From the IMG/VR virus record IMGVR_UViG_3300029915_000005: a stretch of DNA of 64,000 bases. One strand, 5' to 3'. Position 1 is the stretch's first letter. Every line of letters begins with the position of its first letter. The DNA is from a virus. Below the pieces are notes generated by a model. The model worked only from the letters and a program-made list of their open reading frames with translations, made no database searches and had not been told where the DNA came from. A program made the translations under genes and the position numbers. Below are positions 16,241-39,841 of this stretch, piece by piece.

Positions 16241-16291
16241 TTCTTTTTTTGAAGAACCAAAGGTTTATTCTTTTTTTGTATAAATACTTAT

Positions 16292-16753
16292 ATGGAAATA
16301 GATATATTAGATACTGGTCATTGGATTGCCCCATGGAAATTTGATGTAAATAAATTTGTTGGATTTCAATATAGAATTACTCAAATCTCTACAAATAGAC
16401 AATATATCGGCAAAAAATTTTTTTATTCTATAACAAGAAAAATAGTCAAAAACAAAAAAAATAGAAAAAAAATAATTAAAGAATCAAATTGGAAAAACTA
16501 TTGCGGGTCGTGTAAGTGGCTTCTATCTGAAATAGAAAAGTGTGGAAAAGAAGATTTTATATTTCAAATAGAATCATTGTGTGAATCTCGATCAAATCTT
16601 GCATGGAGAGAAGTAGAACGATTAGTTAAAGAAAATGTGTTGAGAGAGAAATTACAAGATGGGAGTCCAAAGTACTTTAACGGAATCATTCCGCCAGTAA
16701 AATTTAAAATTTGTGAAGAAACCCAAAATGAAAAGGAATATAAAATTGATTAA
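16292..16753 (+). CDS. GIY-YIG family nuclease
   Basis: GFQYRIT...RQYIGKK...ESNWKNYCGS; TAAATA 5 nt upstream. Confidence 0.7.
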   Translation: MEIDILDTGHWIAPWKFDVNKFVGFQYRITQISTNRQYIGKKFFYSITRKIVKNKKNRKKIIKESNWKNYCGSCKWLLSEIEKCGKEDFIFQIESLCESRSNLAWREVERLVKENVLREKLQDGSPKYFNGIIPPVKFKICEETQNEKEYKID

Positions 16754-17461: not shown

Positions 17462-19714
17462 ATGCCAGAATTTAATAATCAATCATTTTTAATTAAGAAT
17501 ATCATTGATATGAGTTTTCAGTTGGCTATTGGTTTAAATCAAACCACTATCACTTCTGAACATATTTTATATATAGCAATTCAAAATTCTAAAGTAAAAG
17601 AATTTTTTAATAATCAAGGTATTGAAACTCAAAGTTTATTAAATGATATTTTTAATTACATCAAATCTCAATCCCATTTATTGAAAAATCAAATTTTTAA
17701 TGAAAATCCAGACGTTATGACTGGTCAAATTACTGCATCAGTTCAAATGATCATTGTTAATGCTGCAACTGACGCCCGAAAAAATAATCGTGAAATTTCA
17801 CATTATGATATATTTAACAATATTTTGAAAAATACTGAATCATATGCCAGTTATTTTATGACAAAATATGGAATTGATGAGGAAATGATTAAAAAAATGA
17901 ATGATGCTGTTGATATTAATAAATCAGCTTTGGATGAATTTTGTATTAATCTTAACGAAAAAGTAAAAAAGAATTATGATGTTCTTATTGGCAGAGAGAC
18001 AGAATTGTTCAGTATTGCTCATACTTTGGCAAAAAAGAAGAAGAGCAATGTTTTAATGATTGGCGATCCTGGAGTGGGAAAGTCGCAGATTGTGGAAGGT
18101 TTGGCACACAATATTAATATTGGAAAAGTACCCAAAATTCTAAAAGATAAGATTATTTTTAGTTTGGATGTGGGTGGTGTGCTGGCTGGTTGCAGATATC
18201 GCGGAGATTTTGAAGAAAAAATCAAAAATATTATTTCAGAATTAGTTGCAAATCCAAAAGCTATTTTATTTGTAGACGAAGCTCATCAGATGGATGCTGG
18301 TGAAGGAAAGAGTCAATCAGGTGTTGGTTTTTCAGCAATGTTGAAGCCAGAACTTTCTCGCGGAAACATTAAAGTTCTAGCAGCGACTACATGGGAAGGA
18401 TACCGTCAAACATTTGAAAAAGATTCTGCTTTGATGCGCAGATTTAGGGTTCTGAATATCGATGAGCCTTCTCATGAAGAAACTATTTTGATTCTTAATG
18501 GCAATAAACTTTCCATGGAGAAATTTCATCATTGCAAAATTAATCAAGATGCAATTAAAGCAGCCGTTGAATTAACTGGAAGATATCAAACTGATAGAAA
18601 ATTTCCAGATAAAGCAATTGATGTTATTGATAGCGCGTGCGCAAGAACTCAAGTTTTATCATTAAAAAATAAAATTGTTAATAGAGAATCTATAGTTGCT
18701 GAAGTTTCAGAAATCACTGGGATTCATATTAAAGATACTGATACAAAAACTTCAATGGATATTTTGACAATTGGAAGTATATTAAAAAATAAAGTATTTC
18801 ATCAAGATAACGCTATTGATTCTGTATCTGAAGGCTTGATTATTGCTCAATCTGGTCTGCGTGATCCAAATAAACCAATTGGAAGTTATGTATTTACTGG
18901 TCCTTCTGGCGTAGGAAAAACATTTCTCGCCAAGCAAATCGCTGCTCATATGAATATGTCATTACTTAAATATGATATGAGTGAATTTCAAGAAAAGCAT
19001 ACTCTTGCTCGTTTGATTGGAGCACCTCCTGGATATGTAGGGTTTGGTGATGGCGGGACAGGCGAAGGTCAACTTATTAATGATATTATCAAACATCCGA
19101 ATTCAGTAATTTTGTTCGATGAAATGGAAAAAGCACATCCTGATATTTTTACTATTCTTCTCCAATTATTAGATGATGGCAAAATTACAGGAACAACTGG
19201 AAAAGTAGCTGATTGCAGAAATTCAATTGTGGTAATGTGCAGCAATCTTGGCTCTAAAGAAAGTGAAAAATTGAATTTAGGATTCAATACCAATAATAGT
19301 GGAAAGAGTGAAACTTCAAAAGCAGTTGATTCATTTATGTTAACAGAACTTCGTGGAAGAATCACTGGTATTGTTGAATTTAACAAATTGGACGATATTA
19401 GCCTTCGTAGAATAGTTAATGAAAGAATTTTAGATATTGAATCTTTATTAAAGGATAAGAGCATTAAGCTCATCCCCAGTGAAAATTTAATAGATCATAT
19501 TCTTTCACTAAATACTGATAGTCAATATGGTGCTCGAAAGATTGCAAAAATTGTTGATTCAACAATTAAGTATCCTTTAAGCGTAAAATTATTAAATGGC
19601 GATATATCTAATAATTCAAATGTTCATTTGGATTGGTGTAATAATGTTTTAACTGTAAATCATTCTATTTCTACTGTTAAAATAATGAAAAAAGTTGCCC
19701 AACCAACAATTTAG
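17462..19714 (+). CDS. clpA: ClpA-like Hsp100 AAA+ ATPase
   Basis: Two AAA modules (GDPGVGKS/FVDEAH; GPSGVGKT/LFDEMEKAH), RLIGAPPGYVG pore loop, LGF docking loop, no ClpB middle coiled coil; TTGACA at 17409. Confidence 0.9.
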   Translation: MPEFNNQSFLIKNIIDMSFQLAIGLNQTTITSEHILYIAIQNSKVKEFFNNQGIETQSLLNDIFNYIKSQSHLLKNQIFNENPDVMTGQITASVQMIIVNAATDARKNNREISHYDIFNNILKNTESYASYFMTKYGIDEEMIKKMNDAVDINKSALDEFCINLNEKVKKNYDVLIGRETELFSIAHTLAKKKKSNVLMIGDPGVGKSQIVEGLAHNINIGKVPKILKDKIIFSLDVGGVLAGCRYRGDFEEKIKNIISELVANPKAILFVDEAHQMDAGEGKSQSGVGFSAMLKPELSRGNIKVLAATTWEGYRQTFEKDSALMRRFRVLNIDEPSHEETILILNGNKLSMEKFHHCKINQDAIKAAVELTGRYQTDRKFPDKAIDVIDSACARTQVLSLKNKIVNRESIVAEVSEITGIHIKDTDTKTSMDILTIGSILKNKVFHQDNAIDSVSEGLIIAQSGLRDPNKPIGSYVFTGPSGVGKTFLAKQIAAHMNMSLLKYDMSEFQEKHTLARLIGAPPGYVGFGDGGTGEGQLINDIIKHPNSVILFDEMEKAHPDIFTILLQLLDDGKITGTTGKVADCRNSIVVMCSNLGSKESEKLNLGFNTNNSGKSETSKAVDSFMLTELRGRITGIVEFNKLDDISLRRIVNERILDIESLLKDKSIKLIPSENLIDHILSLNTDSQYGARKIAKIVDSTIKYPLSVKLLNGDISNNSNVHLDWCNNVLTVNHSISTVKIMKKVAQPTI

Positions 19715-24669: not shown

Positions 24670-24691
24670 GAATTAAATTATAAATATAAGT

Positions 24692-25210
24692 ATGAAGATT
24701 AATGAAGTCATTATCGATAATGAAAATGGATTAGGAGGAGTTTCATATAATCAAGAAATTGATTATCTTGGTCTTAGAGTGCTAATGTATCCATCCACAT
24801 TTTTAAGCCTAGCATATTATAGAAGTCGAAACGATTTAGGAAATGTTGACTATATAAAAAATTATATTAAAAATGGTGGGACTATTGGCGCTCCATTCCT
24901 TCAAATAAGTATTCCTAATAGATGGGAGAATGATGATTATTCTATTCCATCCATAGTTATTGGTCATGAAGGAAGAAATAGAATGATGGCACTCGATGAA
25001 CTTCAAGATGAAGGATTAGAACCTGATGTGCCAGTTGAAACTCATTTATTGTTTTATAAATATAGAGCCAGGCATTTAAAACCAGAATGGATAATACAAT
25101 TAAATAAACAACTTTATAATCAAAATACAGAATATGAATATCATTCTGGAGAAGTGGCTTATACAGATAGCCCTATAACCAAAGGGCCATTGTTTAAGGT
25201 TGTAAATTAG
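24692..25210 (+). CDS. ParB/Srx-like domain protein (leader MKINEV)
   Basis: APFLQI...VIGHEGRNRMMAL resembles the ParB/Srx (D/E)GxxR motif; TAAATA 5 nt upstream. Confidence 0.45.
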   Translation: MKINEVIIDNENGLGGVSYNQEIDYLGLRVLMYPSTFLSLAYYRSRNDLGNVDYIKNYIKNGGTIGAPFLQISIPNRWENDDYSIPSIVIGHEGRNRMMALDELQDEGLEPDVPVETHLLFYKYRARHLKPEWIIQLNKQLYNQNTEYEYHSGEVAYTDSPITKGPLFKVVN

Positions 25211-26170: not shown

Positions 26171-26193
26171 TATGAAAAAGAATAAATATAAGT

Positions 26194-29100
26194 ATGAGAT
26201 TACAAAATTTGTTTGAAGAAAAAATAAAACAAACAACTGCAACAATTTTTAGCGGTGGGTTTCACCCATTCCTTCCACAACATTTATATTGCTGGGAATA
26301 TTTGATTTCAAAATTTCCAAATGCACATCATTATATAGCTTCCACTAATAATATAAGTGAGCGACCATTTTCATTTAAGCAAAAACAATTTTTAGCAGTG
26401 CAAGCTGGCATACCTAAAAATGGATTTGTACAAGTAACAAGTCCTTATAAAGCATTGGAGATAACTAGTAAATATGATTCAAACAATACTATTGTTATAT
26501 TTGGTTTAAGTGAAAAAGATGCAGAAAGACTCGGACCAACGATAAAGAAAGATGGGACCCTGTCATTTTTACTACCATATCCTGGGCCTTCTACTCCACT
26601 AGAAACTTTGAATAAACATGCATATTATGTAATTATTCCTGTCCATAAGTATAGAGTTTTGGGACAAGAGATAACCTCTGCTTCTCAAATAAGAAAGATG
26701 TATACTTCTTCTAATGAAAGCGATAGATATACTATTATTCGAGAATTATATCCAAATTCTATGAAAGTTGGAGAGATTAAAAAAATATTTGATCAAGTTT
26801 TGCTTGCTCCAATAAATGAAGATATATATGACGTGATTTATAGACCAAAAAACGTTTATAATATAGAAGCGAATGAATATCCAGAATTTATGTTAGATGG
26901 GGATGTTCAACGTATGATATATGATTTGCACCAACAGGAAGAGATTGATGCTGGCTCTGATATTTGGGATAGAATGGATAGTGTCTGGTATAAGTTACAA
27001 AATGTTTCTATAAAAAAATTAGATAACATAAATGATTTAGATGAAGATGATGACCAATATTCTGATGAAATAACTCCTTTTCCTCCAATAGTATTAACAA
27101 AAAGAGGGGAAATATTAGATGGATTTCATAGGACTATTTCTGCTAAAATTCGTGGTGATAAAACAATTAGAGCATATGTTCCTTGCAAAAAACCAATTAA
27201 TGAATCTAAAGCTGGATTAGAATATAAATTAAAACTTGGAAACAAAAAATCTGTAATAGATTCAAGTGGCTGGCTATTTCCAGATAAAACTTTTGTTCCA
27301 CTTGTTCCAGGAACAACTCACGAAACAATGGCTACAAGATTGGGATATAATGGTTATGAAGGAATATATAAAATTGGATGTGTAAGAGTTTCCCGTCCAA
27401 TTTATGCTCCGGGTAAAATTTATATAGAAACAATACAAAAATTGAGTGATAGTACTTATAAGCTAATTATGAATATTATTCATAGAATAAAAGTGGATGT
27501 TAAAATAGATGTTACTGTTGGATCAGGTAATGGATATTTTCAACATTATAAATGGGATTTCAAAGATAGACAATTGCATAAAACAAATTTTTATGAGTCA
27601 GTTATAAATGAAGAACCTGATTTTAATTATACAAAATTTAATAATAGAGATGAAGAGCTTTCAAGATTAAAATTTGATTATTCAGTAATACCCAGTAATA
27701 ATGACGGAATTGGTGGATTTTGGATAATTGTAAATAACTCCTCTGGTGTTAGTGTGGCAGATATTGATTTGGTGGAAGTTAATTCAAAAACATTAGTAAT
27801 TTCTTTTATTAGAATTAATTTAAAATGGAAAGGTACTGGACTTGGGCAAATTCTGTATGACAAAGCGATTAAAAAAGCCAAACAATTAGGATATAAATAT
27901 TTTCGATCAGATACTGATAGATCAGCGGCTGCTGAAAAAGCGTGGAAAAGATTGGCAGCAAGATATACAGTTAAGTACAAAGAAGGCAAAGAATTTAATA
28001 AAGGGTATTATGAAATTGATCTAAGTAAAGTTCAATTAAAAGAATCATTTGATTATTCCTATAGAGCTAAATTATTTCAACTTAGACCACAAATGATTAA
28101 AGCTGCACAAAAAATATATGATAAATGGGAAGGAGGAGAAGTTGGTTTGTGTGATAGTATTGCAGAGTCAATTTCTGATTGTGTATTAAAAAATATAAAG
28201 AATATTGATTCATACGTGGTTGGCCATAAAAATCCAAAATTGCATGAACTTCATTTTTGGGTAAGAGTAGATTTTAATAATGGAGAAAAATATTATGATA
28301 TTGACTTACCATTTGGAAAATATGAAAGATATGATAATAAAAAACATTATTTTGTAAAAATACCAAATGTAAAATTTCAATTAAATGATTTATTAATATA
28401 TCAATCATCTTTAAATTATAATAAAGCTCCTTGGGAAATAAGAAATAGTTATACTCCACATAAATCAGATAGTTATTTTATCAGCGAATCTATTGCACAA
28501 GAAGTTATAAAAGTTGGTAAAAGCAATGATGAAATTATAAAATTAATCAAAGAAGCTACAAAATATAAATTATATGTTCCTACATTTACAGCGCAAAAAG
28601 AATTTGGTTGGATATTACAAACAGGAAATAAAGGTAAAATAAGTAAAATGGCTATGATGTATGTTAACAACATGCCTGTCGCTTGGATCATTTATTGGAA
28701 ACATGGAAGTTTTATGTCTGACTCTAATCCAAGAACAGAAAATGACAAATATTGGAGATTTACTAAAAAAGAATTTAGAAATATAGGTTATTATCATAAA
28801 TTAAAAAAAGCTTTATGGAATATAATTAATGAGGCACCAGATTTTGGCTACAAAAGTTTTAATGATAGAGATGAAGATATAAGCAAATTAAAGTGGGAAA
28901 TTGATAAAAGACCATTTAAAGATTGGAATAGTGATGAGGAACACCTAGGAATAATAATTAGGGCAAGAAATCCAGAAACTAATGAAGTAGAAGGTTTTAT
29001 AACTTCTAATGAGATAACCAAGAAAACATTAAAAATTTCAAGAAGTCAATTAACATCTAATCATAATTGGCAATCGACTGGTCTTGGACAAATGTTATAT

Positions 29101-32040: not shown

Positions 32041-32908
32041 TTTGGATATGTCAAAACTAAGTTCAGGAGATGTTAAAGAAATCAATGCTAATGTTGAATC
32101 TTTATCTCTATGGATAAAAGATCATTGTTCAGAATTTTTGAAAATGAAAGGAGCAAATGATCTCGTTCGAGGTGTTAGAGAAAACTCACCAAGTATTTTT
32201 ATGGGATATCCAAGAAAAAATAGAAGAAGTATTGAAGGAGAAATATCTACTGAGCTTACTAAAATAGTAGACAAATATATGCAAATGACTGGTTTTACTG
32301 CTCTTCGAGGAAATAGTTTATTTTGTAATAGTGATCCTGAAATGGCTGAACCATGGGGTGAATTATATGTCATATTCCCTATAAATGGATTTACTTTTGC
32401 GTATAGTAAACGACATACTTGTTGTTCAGGGGCAAGTTATATATTTCCAACAGAAGCTATTGACGAAAATTTACGCACATATGTAGACCAAATTTCTGAT
32501 TTTTGGAATCGTAAAAAATACGATGTCCATGGATATTCAGAAAATATAAAAAAATTTTTAAAATATTGGTATACTCTTAATGAGTTTTATTCCAAAAAAG
32601 TAAATTATTTTAATATTACTACAGTAATAAGAAATATTATTAAGACGTACAATTCTTTTACTAACGACGAAAAGGTTATGTTATCTGGTTCAGTAGTTGA
32701 TCGTGCAATTATTGATCTTGGAAGAGAATTGAAACAGTTAGGAACAGATGAAATAATTGCTAAAAAATTCATAGTAAACAATAAATTGACCAATAAAAAT
32801 TTGAAATGGGCTTTAGAAAATAGCTATGATGTGTGGATTCACGGAGCATATATTGCCATTGACAGAGAATTATATATACATAATTTTGATTTATTTGAAA
32901 AACTATAA
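32021..32908 (+). CDS. ADP-ribosyltransferase-like paralogue 5 (leader MLLREF)
   Basis: AGGAG RBS; LVRG...LRGNSLFCNS...WGELYVIFP...YDVWIHG, with a ~100-aa insertion. Confidence 0.5.
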   Translation: MLLREFDLDMSKLSSGDVKEINANVESLSLWIKDHCSEFLKMKGANDLVRGVRENSPSIFMGYPRKNRRSIEGEISTELTKIVDKYMQMTGFTALRGNSLFCNSDPEMAEPWGELYVIFPINGFTFAYSKRHTCCSGASYIFPTEAIDENLRTYVDQISDFWNRKKYDVHGYSENIKKFLKYWYTLNEFYSKKVNYFNITTVIRNIIKTYNSFTNDEKVMLSGSVVDRAIIDLGRELKQLGTDEIIAKKFIVNNKLTNKNLKWALENSYDVWIHGAYIAIDRELYIHNFDLFEKL

Positions 32909-32941
32909 ATACTAAAGAGAATAAATTATTGGAGTAACTAT

Positions 32942-35900
32942 ATGAAAAAGAAATCATTATTGGGATCAACAAAACCATACAGAAATCCAAAGTGGCTTGG
33001 CCCACAAGATAAAGTTGACAATCTTGGCCCAATTCTTGGAGCAAAACCAAAAAAATCAAAAGTTTTGAGCACAAAATTCATGGGATGCAGCAAAAATATG
33101 ACTAATAAAAATATCATTGCGGAAAATAATAAATATTCATCAAATGAAAAAGCACAACTGGCTGCTGTTCGACGAGATGGTTATGCAATTGAATGGATTG
33201 ACAATCCAAGCGAAGCTGTGCAAATGGCTGCTGTTAAACAAAATGGTTATGCAATTGGATACATCAGCAAGCCAAGCGAAGCTGTGCAAATGGCTGCTAT
33301 TCAACGAAATTATCGTGCAATTGAATACATCGACAAACCAAGCGAAGCTGTGCAAATGGCTGCTGTTCGACAAGATGGTTGGGCAATTGAATACATCGAC
33401 AATCCAAGCGAAGCTGTGCAACTTGCTGCTGTTCAACAAAATGGTCGTGCAATTCAATTCATAAAAAAGCCAACAATTAATGTCAAATTAATGGCTAAAT
33501 CAAAAGTTTTGAGCACGAAATTTCAAGGTTGTTCCATAGATCGCTCCAATAGCAATATTATTTCTGAATATAAAGATGATTATAATCCATCCAATGAAGA
33601 ATGGCTTAAAAATGAAATTGATTACGCCTATGAAATTTTTAATAATGAGGAATTTCCAAGAGTGGACAGAGAAGAAGCTCATCGAAGAATAAAGCTTTTA
33701 AATGCTGAAGCAAAAAAGAAAGGATATATTGATAAGTGGAATAAAGAAGCGCAAGAAGAAGCAGAAAAGACTCATATTAAACCAGAACTTTTAGATGTTC
33801 TTGATGATGTACGAGGCTATATTCATCACGGGAAAACTATAAACAAAGCTGATAGTAATATGTTACATAGTATGGGAATTAGTGAAGCTGTAAACAAATA
33901 TCCAATTTCTGCCAGAATAAATCCAAGATCATTAAAAAAATTATCTTTGTTGGGGCCAGAAGATAAACTTGGATTTGGAGCAGGATTAATAACAATCACT
34001 AATAAAGTATATATTGCAGCATGGCATTCAGAAATTCGTGCAAAACGTGGTTATGATATTTGTAGATTAAGTGAAGGAGCAATTAGAATTAGACAGGGTG
34101 GTTGGGATTGCGGAGATAATACAATAATTGAGTTTGGAAAATATGATGATGACACAATTTATAGACTTAAACAAATAATTCCATATGTTACTTCTCCAAC
34201 AAATAAATTTAAATTAGAGTGTGATGCTCGTGGAATAAATAATGATCATTTATATGTGACTGGAAATAAAGAATATATTATGGCAGAATTGGAAGAATGG
34301 TTAACTCCAAGACAAAAAGTTCCACTTCCAGGAAGTGTTATGGCATTTCATATGCAAGAATCAAAAGAAACTCCAAAATTAACATATAGAGAGTTTGCAA
34401 ACGCAAGCAAAGCAAAGAATAAGAAGTGCCCAACTTGTGAAAGCGAATTTAAGAATGTTCACTCAGCGAATCAAAAATATTGTTCCTCGGATTGTGAAGT
34501 GAAAGGAGAGACAGTTAAAAAATTACAAGAAGCGTTTGATAAATCAATAATAAGAAAAGCTGGATTTATTCCTTATTATTTTGATAACTTTGGAAAACTC
34601 AGAATGATGTTTGTTATGAGCAGTGATCCAACTTATGGCGGAAGCAAGTGGATGATAGCTAAAGGGCATATCGATGGAAAAGAAACAGATTTACAAGCTG
34701 CTTTACGAGAAGGAAACGAAGAGTGTGGGGTTAAGCAGTCAAATATTAAATTTATTAAACTTGGGTGGAAAGGTTTAATAAAAGGTTACACAGAATCTTC
34801 TGAAATGACAATTTATATTGGAGAAGTTAAAGACCCAGTTGATTTTGATAAACCAGGTAACGAAATAAAAGCTGTTAAATGGATAACTCCAGAAGAATTT
34901 AATTCGATTGGAAGAAATAGTCAAAAATTTATTGTTGAAGCATGTGTAAACAAAATTGGAGATAAAATGCGATTTTCTGAAATAAAAGAATCAAGAAAAT
35001 TTACAGTTTATAAAGATGGTGGTTTTTATGGCCCAAAATATGAATATGGATACATAGGAGTTCAAGACGAAGATGGGCATGATATGACTTATATTGGAAA
35101 GAAAAGTGTTCCCAATATGAATATACAGCAAGCAATATCAGCCCTTAAACAACAATTTCCAGGATGTGAAGTGAAAATTAAACTATCAAAAATATCTGAA
35201 GGTATGCTCAATGGACTAACTGTTATGTCTCTCGATCAATTTTTGGATGGCGAAAATCCAGAAGAAACTGAATTGGAAGACGAGATGTTGGGAGAAGCTG
35301 GAGAATTTGGTCTTGGTTCTAAATATCGAAACGCAAGTCATAAAGAAATGCAGGATTATCTTGATAGAACAGTATTCAAGAAGAAAAATAAACTTGATCC
35401 ATACACTATGCCATATATTCACCCAAGCAATGTAAAAAAGAATGCAGATGGTTCAGTTCCTATTATTGATGAAAATGGCGATAAGTATGATCTTGATGCT
35501 TTAAGAGATGCTATTACTAAAAGACCTAGTGGCTTACTTAAACAGAATGAGAAGATGAAACACAGTAATGGTACTGCCACAGTTTATTATAATGTTGGTT
35601 TGCCAGCATTAAAAGGATTGTCAGTTAATGAAGAAACAGGAGAATTTGTAGTTGTTGATACTTGCCCTGGTGCAGGTATTTGCAAAAATTATTGTTTCGC
35701 AATGAAAGGAAGCTATATTATGTTTCCTGGAGTTAGCATGAAGTCTGCGCAAACATTAAATTATTTATTGAATGATCCAGAAGGATTTAAAGCAGAATTA
35801 ATTGGTGAAATTTCAAAAGCAATCGCTAAATGGGATAATTTTACAGATAAAGATTTTAATAAAGGAGATGTTGAAGTTTCAATAAGGTGGCATGATTCAG

Positions 35901-36403
35901 GAGACTTCTTCAGTCCTGAATATATGGATATGGCTTGGGATGTTGCTAGAGAATTCCCAAATAATTTGTTTTATGCTTACACCAAAATAGCTGATGTTGC
36001 AAATTCAGAGGACAAGCCAGATAATTTTGTAATTAATTTTAGTGCTGGTGCATCTTCAACGCAAAGCAATTTAGTTAATATAAGTGCAGTTAAACATAGC
36101 CAAGTAGTGCCCAAAGATTTATTCTATGATTTAATTGCACGCAAAGGTATTAAGCTTATTAAAAATGCAGCAGGAGCCACACAATTTAGAGGTCCAGAAG
36201 AATGGAATGAATTAAAAGATAGATTGGCTGAAAAATATGATATAGATGTTGATACTATTTTAAGTTATGATGAATTTGTGGAAAAGAAGATGAATAAAAC
36301 GCTCGGCACTAAACCAAAATGGAATGTTACAGTTCTTCCTGGAGAAGGAGACGTTTCAGCAACAGATCCTACAGTAAAAGGTACATACTTAATGTTTCAC
36401 TAA
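32942..36403 (+). CDS. Polyprotein 2: DUF4116-like repeats, unknown domains, Zn ribbon, Nudix hydrolase, Gp88-like Cys-cluster domain
   Basis: AAVxxNGxAIxxI repeats; CPTC...CSSDC; Nudix box KGHIDGKETDLQAALREGNEECG; TCPGAGICKNYCFA...IRWHDSGDF...FYAYTK; TATAAATA at 32904. Confidence 0.65.
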   Translation: MKKKSLLGSTKPYRNPKWLGPQDKVDNLGPILGAKPKKSKVLSTKFMGCSKNMTNKNIIAENNKYSSNEKAQLAAVRRDGYAIEWIDNPSEAVQMAAVKQNGYAIGYISKPSEAVQMAAIQRNYRAIEYIDKPSEAVQMAAVRQDGWAIEYIDNPSEAVQLAAVQQNGRAIQFIKKPTINVKLMAKSKVLSTKFQGCSIDRSNSNIISEYKDDYNPSNEEWLKNEIDYAYEIFNNEEFPRVDREEAHRRIKLLNAEAKKKGYIDKWNKEAQEEAEKTHIKPELLDVLDDVRGYIHHGKTINKADSNMLHSMGISEAVNKYPISARINPRSLKKLSLLGPEDKLGFGAGLITITNKVYIAAWHSEIRAKRGYDICRLSEGAIRIRQGGWDCGDNTIIEFGKYDDDTIYRLKQIIPYVTSPTNKFKLECDARGINNDHLYVTGNKEYIMAELEEWLTPRQKVPLPGSVMAFHMQESKETPKLTYREFANASKAKNKKCPTCESEFKNVHSANQKYCSSDCEVKGETVKKLQEAFDKSIIRKAGFIPYYFDNFGKLRMMFVMSSDPTYGGSKWMIAKGHIDGKETDLQAALREGNEECGVKQSNIKFIKLGWKGLIKGYTESSEMTIYIGEVKDPVDFDKPGNEIKAVKWITPEEFNSIGRNSQKFIVEACVNKIGDKMRFSEIKESRKFTVYKDGGFYGPKYEYGYIGVQDEDGHDMTYIGKKSVPNMNIQQAISALKQQFPGCEVKIKLSKISEGMLNGLTVMSLDQFLDGENPEETELEDEMLGEAGEFGLGSKYRNASHKEMQDYLDRTVFKKKNKLDPYTMPYIHPSNVKKNADGSVPIIDENGDKYDLDALRDAITKRPSGLLKQNEKMKHSNGTATVYYNVGLPALKGLSVNEETGEFVVVDTCPGAGICKNYCFAMKGSYIMFPGVSMKSAQTLNYLLNDPEGFKAELIGEISKAIAKWDNFTDKDFNKGDVEVSIRWHDSGDFFSPEYMDMAWDVAREFPNNLFYAYTKIADVANSEDKPDNFVINFSAGASSTQSNLVNISAVKHSQVVPKDLFYDLIARKGIKLIKNAAGATQFRGPEEWNELKDRLAEKYDIDVDTILSYDEFVEKKMNKTLGTKPKWNVTVLPGEGDVSATDPTVKGTYLMFH

Positions 36404-36411
36404 GGAAAAAT

Positions 36412-37025
36412 ATGAGACTAGATGAATATTCAAAACCAAGAGTTCCTGTAAAAGTTTTTAAAGTAGTTGATGATGAAGTTCGTACTTCATCATCTTCATT
36501 GAATATGGACCAAAAATTAGAAAAACTTGGTTGGGAATTTTTTAACGGAGGGTCTTTTGCAGCAGTATATACAAATCCTAAAAAACCATATATTCTAAAA
36601 ATCAATAAACAACCGGATAAAGCTTATGCTTATTATGTGTCAATAATAAGAAAATTGCATAATAAACATTTTCCAAAAATAAGTGATTTGAAATTTATAG
36701 AAGTTAATGGTGGTCGATATTACATATATCTTATTGAGAAATTACATAAGGCAAAATATGGAGTAGCAATAGCTAGTAGACTAGATTTTATTATGAATAA
36801 TTATGAAATTCCTCTGAAAAAATAGAGCAAGATTATTATAGATTATATGATACAAAAGCAGGATTTGAATATTTTGAAAAACATCTTGATTTATTTAAAG
36901 CTGCACAAATTATTGGAAAAAATAAAGAAACAAGTAATGTGCCAGGATTATTTTTTGATATGCATTCTGGAAATATTATGCAGAGAAAAGACGGAACAAT
37001 TGTTATAACTGATCCATACTTCTAA
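36412..37025 (+). pseudogene. T7 gp0.7-like protein kinase, paralogue A (leader MRLDEY), split by a -1 frameshift
   Basis: GGSFAAVY...YILKIN...FPKI...YLIEKL stops at TAG 36823-36825; the -1 frame from 36822 continues to DMHSGNIMQRKDGTIVITDPYF*. Confidence 0.75.
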
Positions 37026-37033
37026 GGATAACT

Positions 37034-37624
37034 ATGAATTTAAATGAATTATACAAACCGAAAATATCTAAAGATATTGATAATGAAATAAATTATCATT
37101 TCAATTATGGCGCTGGAAATACTCAGCAACTAAGAAATCGTCTTAAAAAATTTGGATGGATATATTTAGATGAAGGAGTTTATAGTTCAGTTTGGGGAAA
37201 TGTTAAAAAATCTTATATTCTTAAAATAAATAAAGTTCCTGATAGAGCATTCGATCATTATGTTAATATAATTAAGAAAAGTAAAAATCCTCATTTTCCA
37301 AAAATAAGTGATATGAGAGAAATAGCTATTGGACCTAAAATTTATTGTGCTTATTTAATTGAAAAATTATTTAAAATTCCTGGCCATTTTGTTGGTGATA
37401 ATTACTCAACTTTTTTCAATACAATTATTAATGCGGATCCAAAATATTCAATTTCTAAACTGTTTAATAACCATATTCCTACCATATTTAAAAAACAACC
37501 AAAACTAGTTGATGCATTATGCATAGTTGGTTCTGAACACAATAACTATTTTATTGATATGCATTCTGGAAATATTATGCAAAGAAAAGATGGAACAATT
37601 GTTATAACTGATCCTTATGCATAA
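37034..37624 (+). CDS. T7 gp0.7-like protein kinase, paralogue B (leader MNLNEL)
   Basis: EGVYSSVW, YILKIN, FPKI, YLIEKL, DMHSGNIM, ITDP. Confidence 0.75.
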   Translation: MNLNELYKPKISKDIDNEINYHFNYGAGNTQQLRNRLKKFGWIYLDEGVYSSVWGNVKKSYILKINKVPDRAFDHYVNIIKKSKNPHFPKISDMREIAIGPKIYCAYLIEKLFKIPGHFVGDNYSTFFNTIINADPKYSISKLFNNHIPTIFKKQPKLVDALCIVGSEHNNYFIDMHSGNIMQRKDGTIVITDPYA

Positions 37625-37673
37625 TTTTTATTAACTCTTTAATATCTTTTAACTTTCCATATAATAATCGATA

Positions 37674-37835
37674 TCAATTTTTGGTTCTATTTCGTTTATT
37701 CTCATTATTCCACCACAATGAATGATCACTCGTGTCTGGTTTACCAATGTACTCTAAATTTATTTCAACTTCTCCAGACGGTCTTTCTGGATATTCTCTA
37801 ATGAGATTCCATTTTGGAATTTCATCGATTTTCAT
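37674..37835 (-). CDS. Short leader-bearing ORF, 53 aa (MKIDEIPKW...)
   Basis: Start overlaps the end of the upstream minus-strand gene and has the same MKIDEI leader. Confidence 0.4.
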   Translation of the reverse strand: MKIDEIPKWNLIREYPERPSGEVEINLEYIGKPDTSDHSLWWNNENKRNRTKN

Positions 37836-38628
37836 TTCTTATTTTCTCCAGCCAATCCAGATAATTCATCATAGGATTTCGTATATACCATGCCAATGTT
37901 TTATAATCTCTAAATTTCGTTTTAAATAAATCCTCTTTCAAGCTTGGAAATGTATTGTTCACTTCTATATTCATTCCTGGAATTTTATGCTTTCTATAAT
38001 ACACCAATTCTTTGGCAGCTTTTCCAACATATTTTTTAAGAAAAGTTCCAATATTAATTAAATAATATTCATCACAATCAAAAATTAATTCATTTTTAGT
38101 AAAATTCTTGGGAAGTCCTTCTCTATATGTAGATGCCATAGATGCTGGAATTCTTCTATCATCTGTCATATGCCCCATATTTCCTGTAATTATCATTCCA
38201 TATTTGTCTGCATCTTCTCCAGCGACAGTATTACCACCAATATCAACCACTACTGGACTCCAAACAACTTTATAATTCTCTGTAGGAACAAAAATTCTAG
38301 CTTGGCCATGAAACAAATATAATTCGCTTGGAGTGATCATAGTACAAAAAGTTGGATTTTTTATGTCCAATTTTTTCATTATATCTGTAAGAGAACTTGC
38401 AAACATTCCTTTTGCGTTATATTCAAAATTTTTATTTTCATGATTGGTAACTTTGATAATAGGAGTTTCTGGTGTTGTAGCATTAAATGCTCTATATATT
38501 AAAGGATAATTTCCCATTCTATCGCAAAAACCTGCAACAATATTTGCACGGGCTCTAATATGCTGAATTTCAGCAGCATGTATAACAGCTTCTTCTAATT
38601 TCTCTTTTGTTATTTCATCGATTTTCAT
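37822..38628 (-). CDS. Divergent ADP-ribosyltransferase-like protein (leader MKIDEI); minus strand, mislabelled + in the track
   Basis: cat at 38626-38628 and tca at 37822-37824 show the minus strand; LIYRA...TFCT...HG..RIFVP...VVWS...NELIF parallels the ART-like family. Confidence 0.45.
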   Translation of the reverse strand: MKIDEITKEKLEEAVIHAAEIQHIRARANIVAGFCDRMGNYPLIYRAFNATTPETPIIKVTNHENKNFEYNAKGMFASSLTDIMKKLDIKNPTFCTMITPSELYLFHGQARIFVPTENYKVVWSPVVVDIGGNTVAGEDADKYGMIITGNMGHMTDDRRIPASMASTYREGLPKNFTKNELIFDCDEYYLINIGTFLKKYVGKAAKELVYYRKHKIPGMNIEVNNTFPSLKEDLFKTKFRDYKTLAWYIRNPMMNYLDWLEKIRNENR

Positions 38629-38640
38629 TATATTTTCCCA

Positions 38641-39231
38641 TCAGCTTGCATAAGGATCAGTTATAACAATTGTTCCGTCTTTTCTCTGCATAATATTGCC
38701 GCCATGCATGTCATTGGAAATATATGGATTTTTGATATTGTGTTTAAATTTTCCAATAATTCTGAGTGCTGTAACTAATTCTGGATTTTGTTTTAAATAA
38801 TCAAGTTGCGTATGAGATGTATTAAAAAATGTTAGTGATGAATATGGACAATCTATTATTTCACTAAAAACATTAGCTAAATGTTTCATTTCAGAACGTA
38901 CATCATCTAATTTCTCAATAAGATATATGTAATATCGACCACCATTAACTTCTATAAATTTCAAATCACTTATTTTTGGAAAATGTTTATTGTTATATTT
39001 CTTTATTAAAGATACATATTGTGCATACGCAGTATCTTGTCTATCATTAACTTTTAACACATAAGATTTTTTTGGATTTGAATATACTGTACTATAATAA
39101 CCAGCCCCTAGAAGAGTCCAACCCAATTTTTTTAATTTGCCTTCTATGGTATATTTATCAGTACTGCGATCAAACACAATTTTAGAAAATTTGGCTGGTA
39201 TTCTCGTTTTTGAATATTCGTCTAGTTTCAT
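38641..39231 (-). CDS. T7 gp0.7-like protein kinase, paralogue A' (leader MKLDEY)
   Basis: GAGYYSTVY, YVLKVN, FPKI, YLIEKL, DMHGGNIM, ITDP. Confidence 0.75.
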   Translation of the reverse strand: MKLDEYSKTRIPAKFSKIVFDRSTDKYTIEGKLKKLGWTLLGAGYYSTVYSNPKKSYVLKVNDRQDTAYAQYVSLIKKYNNKHFPKISDLKFIEVNGGRYYIYLIEKLDDVRSEMKHLANVFSEIIDCPYSSLTFFNTSHTQLDYLKQNPELVTALRIIGKFKHNIKNPYISNDMHGGNIMQRKDGTIVITDPYAS

Positions 39232-39841
39232 TATAACCCCCAATGTATGGATCAGTTATTACAATTGTTCCATCTTTTCTTTGCATAAAATTTTCGTCAT
39301 GCAAATCAATCCTAAAAAATGGTTTAGATTCATAGCTAACTATACGCAATGCTTTAATTAATTTTGGTTGTTTTTTGAATATTTCAGGAATTGCTCCATA
39401 CTCTTCAATTAGTGATTCTAAAGGTTTTTCTTCCATATTAAGATTAATTACAAAATTGAACATAGATGCATAATCTTCAGCAGTAGCTCTATTTGGAAAT
39501 TCCTCTAATTTTTCAATTAAATATGCATAATAACTTCTTCCTGTAATAAATATTTGTCTTCTATCACTAATTTTTGGAAAATGTGGATTTCTACTTCCTT
39601 TAATAACAGAAACATAATGATCAAATCCAGGATCTGGTATTTTATTTATTTTAAGGATATATGATTTTTTGGGATTACTCCAAACCGAACTATAAACACC
39701 GGATCCTTCCAATTTCCAACCAAATTTTTCAAGTTGATTTTTTAAATATGGAATATTAAGAGGATTATTGAAAAGATGATTCGTTATAGCATAAGTTGCG
39801 CTCTTAGATATTTTCGGTTTGTAGAATTCATTTATAAGCAT
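39182..39841 (-). CDS. T7 gp0.7-like protein kinase, paralogue B' (leader MLINEF)
   Basis: GSGVYSSVW, YILKIN, DLHDENFM, ITDP; minus-strand TAAATA (39847-39852) 5 nt before the ATG. Confidence 0.75.
   Translation of the reverse strand: MLINEFYKPKISKSATYAITNHLFNNPLNIPYLKNQLEKFGWKLEGSGVYSSVWSNPKKSYILKINKIPDPGFDHYVSVIKGSRNPHFPKISDRRQIFITGRSYYAYLIEKLEEFPNRATAEDYASMFNFVINLNMEEKPLESLIEEYGAIPEIFKKQPKLIKALRIVSYESKPFFRIDLHDENFMQRKDGTIVITDPYIGGYNETRRIFKNENTSQIF

Follow-up and report, generated by a model that had tools for sequence, protein, structure and literature searches.

Two known systems bear on the genes described here, the protein kinase gp0.7 of phage T7 (T7K) and the capsid-targeted cargo of phage T4. 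A 2026 study showed T7K to be hyperpromiscuous and to disarm a broad range of DNA-targeting defences (PMC13645617). The defining mark of its homologues is a D-P-V motif that replaces DFG, and they are known from the Autographiviridae, from two jumbo-phage clusters (Munch and G17) and from a few prophages; outside the Autographiviridae the residue after D-P is other than V, and the jumbo-phage homologues lack the C-terminal shut-off domain (PMC13645617). In T4, the head protease gp21, like its jumbo-phage relatives, cleaves after [LI]-x-E, and T4-type head proteases act only inside proheads (PMC9026906). T4 propeptides range from 7 residues (Alt) to 65 (gp23), the first 10 residues of internal protein III (IPIII) are enough to load foreign proteins into T4 heads, and related phages have varied proteins with similar capsid-targeting sequences (CTS) (PMC9026906). 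This work will focus on four paralogous genes, which we call K1 to K4, at positions 36412-39841 of a 64,000-nucleotide stretch of DNA from an uncultured phage (IMG/VR record IMGVR_UViG_3300029915_000005; the window). We believe they combine the two systems. The explanation that best accounts for them as a whole, with a probability of roughly 0.5, is that they specify T7K-type kinases that are made late, tagged, packaged into the head and injected into the next host.

The kinase assignment itself is solid. K3 is 30% identical to T7 gp0.7 over 162 residues (BLASTP, E 1e-12), and a 53-sequence profile of the family matches T7K with a probability of 97.5% (hhalign, E 8e-12). The profile alignment pairs GFKMLGNGHFSAAY/VIKV of T7K with GWTLLGAGYYSTVY/VLKV of the window family, and FDMHSGNIMF...ITDPV with NDMHGGNIMQ...ITDPY. 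Against phrog_15752, annotated as the T7 gp0.7 kinase, the E values are 2.5e-16 for K3, 1.5e-12 for K4, 4.7e-9 for K2 and 7e-4 for the N-terminal part of K1. Only K3 matches phrog_2828 (E 2.4e-10); a search with the 1e-10 cut-off of PMC13645617 would therefore overlook most copies. A tblastn search of 50,697 phage records returned 106, nearly all of them T7-like 'serine-threonine kinase' records at about 30% identity. The AlphaFold (AF2) model of K3 (predicted local distance difference test, pLDDT, 89; predicted template-modelling score, pTM, 0.83) is poorly defined at residues 1-27 only. Its best matches in BFVD are T7-like phage kinases (E 1e-10, TM 0.55-0.65), and a comparison with solved structures matches it to Hanks-type kinases (Foldseek E about 4e-5); the predicted bilobal protein-kinase fold and the catalytic residues are those of Hanks-type Ser/Thr kinases such as PknB of M. 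tuberculosis and YabT of B. subtilis. A sequence search of the PDB found nothing below E 0.03. The Pfam scan gave no family match; the precomputed family PF27024 lies outside the scanned library, and our literature search found no paper that names it. Sequence, profile and predicted-structure comparison thus bear out the gp0.7-type assignment made in a preliminary description of this DNA, and we regard it as very likely that the locus encodes protein kinases of the T7K family.

The four paralogues are real, as judged by BLASTP and by their motifs, and they lie where the preliminary description put them, but three are intact and one is not. K2 (37034-37624, plus strand, 196 residues), K3 (39231-38641, minus strand, 196 residues) and K4 (39841-39182, minus strand, 219 residues) are complete; K1 (36412-37025, plus strand) is frameshifted, its N-lobe in frame 1 and its C-terminus in the -1 frame. 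The motifs that had been claimed for all four are indeed there: a Gly-rich loop, the lysine in [IV]LK[IV]N, a catalytic loop D[ML]Hx[GE]N (DLHDEN in K4) and ITDP near the end of the protein. In K3 the catalytic residues are Lys60, Asp174, Asn179 and Asp192-Pro193. These are invariant across 53 homologues, and Lys60, Asp174, Asn179 and Asp192 are at least 85% conserved across 140 sequences. T7K shares the G-x-G-x-[FY]-S loop, the V-[IL]-K-V lysine, the D-M-H-S-G-N-I-M catalytic loop, I-T-D-P in place of DFG and the lack of a canonical activation segment, and both groups are almost exclusive to phages (PMC13645617).

The differences from T7K are as clear as the likenesses. The third residue of the D-P motif is Tyr or Phe in the window proteins, not Val (T7K has Val-Ser). 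Each paralogue has about 200 residues, made up of a tag of 5 residues, a variable linker roughly 25 residues long and a kinase core that ends soon after D-P, whereas T7K has 359 residues. The C-terminal shut-off/DNA-binding domain of T7K is absent, for the proteins end about 1-3 residues past D-P(-Y), K4 20 residues further. The T7K homologues of jumbo phages (Escherichia phage G17/121Q, Salmonella phage Munch) are likewise stand-alone kinase domains of about 210 residues. Since they also lack the shut-off domain, it marks the Autographiviridae branch and not the whole T7K family. The subfamily to which the window proteins belong is large: a profile search of 1.84 billion representatives (50%-identity clusters) found 6577 proteins at E<=1e-3, of which 3239 reach E<=1e-10 and 264 reach E<=1e-30.

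The most important feature that T7K lacks is at the N-terminus. All four proteins are headed by the leader tag that the preliminary description reported: MRLDEY in K1, MNLNEL in K2, MKLDEY in K3 and MLINEF in K4. A start of this form, M-x-[LIVM]-x-E and a hydrophobic residue, stands at residue 1 in 120 of 153 single-domain relatives (those below 300 residues among the best-scoring profile hits and the homologues found earlier), and most of the exceptions look truncated or have mis-called starts. Conservation of M1 and E5 is 85% or higher in the 140-sequence alignment, in contrast to residues 11-30, which belong to its most variable stretches. The low confidence of residues 1-27 in the K3 model is what would be expected of a flexible leader. 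Nor is the tag confined to kinases: 16 open reading frames (ORFs) of the window begin with it, and they belong to at least seven unrelated families, including five ART-like paralogues, a HAD-like protein and several orphans. From residue frequencies we estimate that chance would give about 0.5 such starts per roughly 75 genes.

Related viral contigs carry tandem arrays of two to seven kinase genes (seven on L011, six and a fragment on L009, two plus two on L001). Single chains with two to five kinase domains are common in our library (P0063, P0064, P0066 and P0094 are examples), and the multi-kinase chains P0062-P0070, P0094, P0101, P0118 and P0120 are up to 1769 residues long. At the joints of these chains the tag is repeated as [LIVM]-x-E-[LM], sometimes before a domain that is not a kinase. 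It lacks the Met there, and at most joints the residues after it are those that come after the N-terminal tag; we give ...DPIFDPKGMNEEQ-LNEL-KGYK, ...SDPIAGPLNES-LDEL-TTLNK and ...DPFWDEHH...-LKEM-MTFNKHP as illustrations. The motif [LIVM]-x-E-[LM...] is present in 28 of the 43 post-kinase tails of multi-kinase polyproteins. Because it occurs both at the N-terminus and between domains, the motif is best read as a protease site and not as an effect on translation start. T7K has no counterpart to the M-x-[LI]-x-E tag, to the several diverged copies per genome or to the multi-kinase polyproteins.

The second line of evidence concerns transcription. The preliminary description had one copy directly behind a late-type promoter, and at the level of motifs this holds: AATAAATA, which matches the T4 late box at 7 of 8 positions (39854-39847, minus strand), lies exactly 5 nucleotides before the ATG of K4, with no Shine-Dalgarno sequence ahead of the gene. 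On the plus strand the box TATAAATA matches at 8 of 8 positions (32904-32911) and is 30 nucleotides before the ATG of a gene for a 1153-residue polyprotein (32942-36403), which heads the unit that continues with K1 and K2. The gaps are 9 nucleotides between the polyprotein gene and K1 and 8 between K1 and K2, with all three genes in the same direction, so K1 and K2 are probably co-transcribed with the polyprotein; no terminator-like site is predicted on the plus strand from 36403 to 37624. The box-N5-ATG layout is found at four gene starts in the window (16292, 24692, 26194 and K4), and in each of the box-to-ATG stretches (16279-16294, 24679-24694, 26181-26196 and, on the minus strand, 39854-39839) the spacing is exactly 5 nucleotides. 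In related loci a box stands 4-8 nucleotides ahead of the kinase gene that opens the array in L001, L006, L009, L011 and L012, with close-set boxes at L001 9917, L006 8690 and 9869, L009 7165, L011 2360, and L012 4656 and 5543. Further boxes stand before other genes, tagged or encoding kinases, in L008, L013 and L034. A T4-type late box, (T/A)ATAAATA, at 4-8 nucleotides from the ATG leaves no room for a Shine-Dalgarno sequence, and should the T4 spacing rule apply, these late transcripts would have almost no leader or none at all. T7K belongs to the class I early genes; the window kinases, by these motifs, would be late ones.

Virion delivery is plausible because the tag matches the cleavage site of the T4 head protease and the propeptide of Alt (MELITE). 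In the T4 record Alt starts MELITE|LF about 30 nucleotides behind TATAAATA, and MELITE is close to the MKLDEY of K3. Alt and the T4 internal proteins (IPs I to III, of which IPIII has a CTS of 10 residues) resemble the window kinases in starting with a short sequence that ends in [LI]-x-E (a propeptide in T4), in a late-promoter box, which in the window is late-promoter-like, and in a repertoire that varies among relatives. They are basic proteins or host-modifying enzymes that are carried in the head and injected. The window kinases are basic too (pI about 9.2-9.7, family median 9.2). They would differ from the T4 cargo in being protein kinases, in having a tag of 5 residues and a late box that abuts the start codon, and in having expanded into arrays and fused into polyproteins. 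A suitable protease may be present, to judge by the relatives. By family-B DNA polymerase (PolB) the jumbo phages that host T7K homologues are among the closest cultured relatives (40% identity), and the S77 head protease (Peptidase_S77) is encoded by all four of the closest cultured relatives; it is on two of five related contigs, the other three being fragments. In a nearly complete related genome of 389 kb (G005) the S77 protease starts MTKLAVLIEN, the capsid protein starts MKELFEN and a scaffold has LLES. The protease and the capsid protein thus carry LIE and LFE near their own N-termini, and the type of site is conserved in this group. The scaffold-like protein of the same genome (L046 8001-8918) ends ...LARIKKLAGLSR.

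The scenario we favour has the following steps. K4, K3 and two tagged genes behind them would be transcribed late from the T4-type box, and K1 and K2 would be transcribed downstream of the late polyprotein gene. At the N-terminus, M-x-[LI]-x-E would act as a T4-like capsid-targeting propeptide and take each protein into the prohead core, where a T4-type S77 head protease would remove the tag after Glu5, or cut kinases out of polyproteins. The basic mature kinases would remain alongside the DNA in the head and accompany it into the next host. There they might phosphorylate host proteins ahead of all phage gene expression, as T7K disarms DNA-targeting defences. Packaging and injection, which we argue from the motifs and from the analogy with T4, have in our estimate a little less than an even chance. 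The anti-defence role leans on the analogy with T7K and is more tentative.

Several observations weigh against this scenario. The tag of 5 residues is shorter than any proven T4 propeptide or CTS. The S77 protease is known from relatives only, the source phage having been read as a 64-kb window. The box TATAAATA is not enriched across the window (23 found, 16.4 expected), and one of the kinase copies, K1, is broken. The kinase of G17 is a single-copy gene without the tag (it starts MTKQEI); it lies among small early-type genes behind a promoter of the form TTGACT-N17-TATGAT, and a very long branch separates it from the window clade in the maximum-likelihood tree. With one untagged copy behind a sigma70-like promoter in G17, packaging is not a property of the wider family. 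The cultured Vibrio phage vB_VpaM_R16F (139 kb) encodes a homologue of 167 residues (L038 3920-4423, which is OP793884.1 133981-134484), annotated as hypothetical. It starts MRLNELF, has a normal Shine-Dalgarno sequence and is surrounded by untagged small early-type genes, and its genome has no match to PF03420 (Peptidase_S77). A tag-like start without an S77 protease means either that the motif can be retained where the proposed machinery is missing or that it is partly intrinsic to the kinase.

R16F speaks for another account, in which active T7K-like kinases are never packaged and work in the cytoplasm late in the same infection. They could, for example, weaken defences triggered by late structural proteins, or adjust host metabolism ahead of lysis. 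The tag would then have some other purpose: it might, for instance, be recognised by an ATP-dependent protease that the phage itself encodes, act as a start that raises expression or form a docking helix. The late-promoter-like boxes fit such late cytoplasmic action equally well, and the phage does encode a possible alternative reader of the tag, an ATP-dependent protease of 750 residues (17462-19714, plus strand; phrog_4871, E 1.9e-199). However, the presence of the motif inside polyproteins, without Met, points to a cutting site and not to a start or expression effect. The motif also obeys the [LI]-x-E rule of T4-type head proteases, which are active only inside proheads (PMC9026906), and it is common to unrelated enzymes clustered with late polyproteins. 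On balance we consider late cytoplasmic action unlikely, though it has to be taken seriously.

If the kinases are packaged, they could instead act on components of the phage (the scaffold, internal proteins or DNA-bound proteins), in the head or during assembly. T7K phosphorylates phage as well as host proteins (PMC13645617), and basic kinases would sit with the DNA. The supply of ATP in a sealed head is doubtful, and a lineage-specific expansion to 2-7 diverged copies with birth-and-death evolution fits an arms race with variable host targets better, so we think this improbable. More improbable again is that these are small-molecule kinases of the protein-kinase-like superfamily, with a sugar, lipid, nucleotide or antibiotic as substrate. 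The preliminary description had offered a closer match to such enzymes as the result that would count against it, and none was found. The APH, choline-kinase and Kdo-kinase families of Pfam give no match even at E<=1 (RfaY is best, at 17 bits against a cut-off of 248), and 48 of the 50 best PDB representatives matching the K3 model are protein kinases. T7K, whose protein kinase activity has been proven by experiment, is matched better by many orders of magnitude. The T7K core, too, ends shortly past its D-P motif. A further idea is that of catalytically dead, kinase-shaped head proteins serving as DNA-condensing or structural cargo, since the window kinases, with their small size, basic charge, tag and several copies, recall the T4 internal proteins, but every catalytic residue is preserved as described above, unlike in pseudokinases, and we give the idea almost no credence.

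What the T7K family gains from this is first of all size. The metagenomic branch is far larger than what was known, with thousands of clusters at 50% identity, and it has a layout that is new: late boxes, a tag of head-protease type, 2-7 genes in an array and 2-5 kinase domains in a polyprotein. Its members also offer a natural minimal kinase scaffold of about 170 residues, and R16F, being a cultured carrier, is a handy experimental entry point for this subfamily. Among open-access papers we found no report of a packaged or injected phage kinase. Should our kinases really be carried in the capsid, they would be the first case of phage protein kinases that are injected. They would then give a general answer to how large phages shield their DNA in the first seconds of infection, and extend the 'internal protein' idea of T4 from a handful of proteins to arsenals of enzymes. 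We put forward tentatively a still wider picture. A large and undescribed class of T4-type and jumbo phages may preload its capsids with batteries of diversified T7K-like mini-kinases, made late as single proteins or as polyproteins cut by the head protease. Once injected, these might phosphorylate host defence proteins before the first phage gene is read, and inverted paralogues could serve as a cassette shuffler that renews the variable surfaces.

The relations among the four copies bear on this last idea. In pairwise BLASTP they match one another at E 1e-27 to 1e-68 with 37-56% identity: 51% for K1/K3, 56% for K2/K4 and 37-43% for the cross pairs. The maximum-likelihood tree groups K1 with K3 and K2 with K4, with Shimodaira-Hasegawa-like approximate likelihood-ratio (SH-aLRT) values of 97 and 98. 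The two pairs, type A (K1 and K3) and type B (K2 and K4), fall in separate sub-clades that each also contain kinases of other phages, so they represent two older lineages, each of which was duplicated again, inverted. The 140-sequence alignment has conserved blocks at the Gly-rich loop and lysine (41-60), at NKHFPKI (81-90), at the hinge YLIEKL (101-110) and at the catalytic end (171-196). The variable blocks, 11-30, 111-150 and 161-170, map in the K3 model to the leader-linker and to helices of the small C-lobe. The main differences between the paralogues fall in two places, the linker and C-lobe residues 111-150. Judging from this divergence and from the analogy with T7K, it is plausible that they have different targets.

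Comparison of the K1 and K3 genes reveals two perfect inverted repeats. One is 84 bp long (36661-36744 with 38908-38991) and the other, in the catalytic ends, 44 bp (36972-37015 with 38654-38697). Adjoining windows of the two genes are only about 50-80% identical at the DNA level. Perfect tracts amid such divergence argue for recent gene conversion or recombination, and we take them to show that the kinase set is being reshuffled. Since the tracts flank the variable middle of K1 and K3, crossing-over between them would swap the variable halves and invert the segment of about 2 kb in between.

K1 itself appears to have been lost recently. Frame 1 (36412-36825) encodes the N-lobe in 137 residues and stops at the TAG at 36823-36825, just past a run of six A (36817-36822). 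The remainder, with the catalytic C-terminus (FDMHSGNIMQRKDGTIVITDPYF), is encoded in the -1 frame at 36822-37025. The truncated product of 137 residues is found on 12 contigs in JGI and ENA data, and a one-residue variant on one more, so the break is real in the population and is no one-off assembly error. In the variant, a strain difference replaces Pro by Ser in the otherwise conserved HFPKI motif. We considered a programmed -1 frameshift and rejected it as the preferred reading: there is no notable RNA structure downstream that could stimulate one (z -1.3), A6 runs are common in the window, close relatives, P0005 and P0006 for example, are read in a single frame, and the Pro>Ser variant also speaks against it. 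Low-level slippage at the A6 run may occur. We read K1 as a recently inactivated copy.

The preliminary description arranged the kinases as two convergent pairs. This is right for K1/K2 on the plus strand and K4/K3 on the minus strand, but the units are longer than the pairs: the plus-strand unit runs from the 1153-residue polyprotein through K1 to K2, and the minus-strand unit from K4 through K3 to a tagged ORF of 268 residues and a tagged ORF of 53. The C-terminal extension of K4, 20 residues, brings a 50-nucleotide overlap with the start of K3.

The window is AT-rich (about 30% GC), and the largest contig with these proteins has 161,839 bp. Besides the genes already discussed the window encodes a virion protein of more than 3000 residues, tail fibre and baseplate proteins, homing endonucleases and enzymes of the queuosine pathway. 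The DNA polymerase of family B by which relatives were ranked is nearest to those of the jumbo myoviruses Phosso, Atu_ph07 and 121Q/G17 (40-45% identity). The kinase locus has no blastn match among cultured phages, and an exact 50-mer from K3 is absent from the viral and metagenome contig collections. The tagged ORF of 268 residues (38628-37822, minus strand; MKIDEI) belongs to the same transcription unit as K4 and K3. It has just two database homologues, its AF2 model is unusable (pLDDT 33), and its similarity to the ART-like paralogues of the window is not significant (hhalign probability 11%). The motifs LIYRAFN, FCTM and NELIFDC are invariant in it. The tagged ORF of 53 residues (37835-37674, minus strand; MKIDEIPKWN) is the final gene of the unit and a member of repeat family D3. 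It overlaps the end of the 268-residue ORF by 14 nucleotides, and its first 30 nucleotides repeat the starts of that ORF and of K3.

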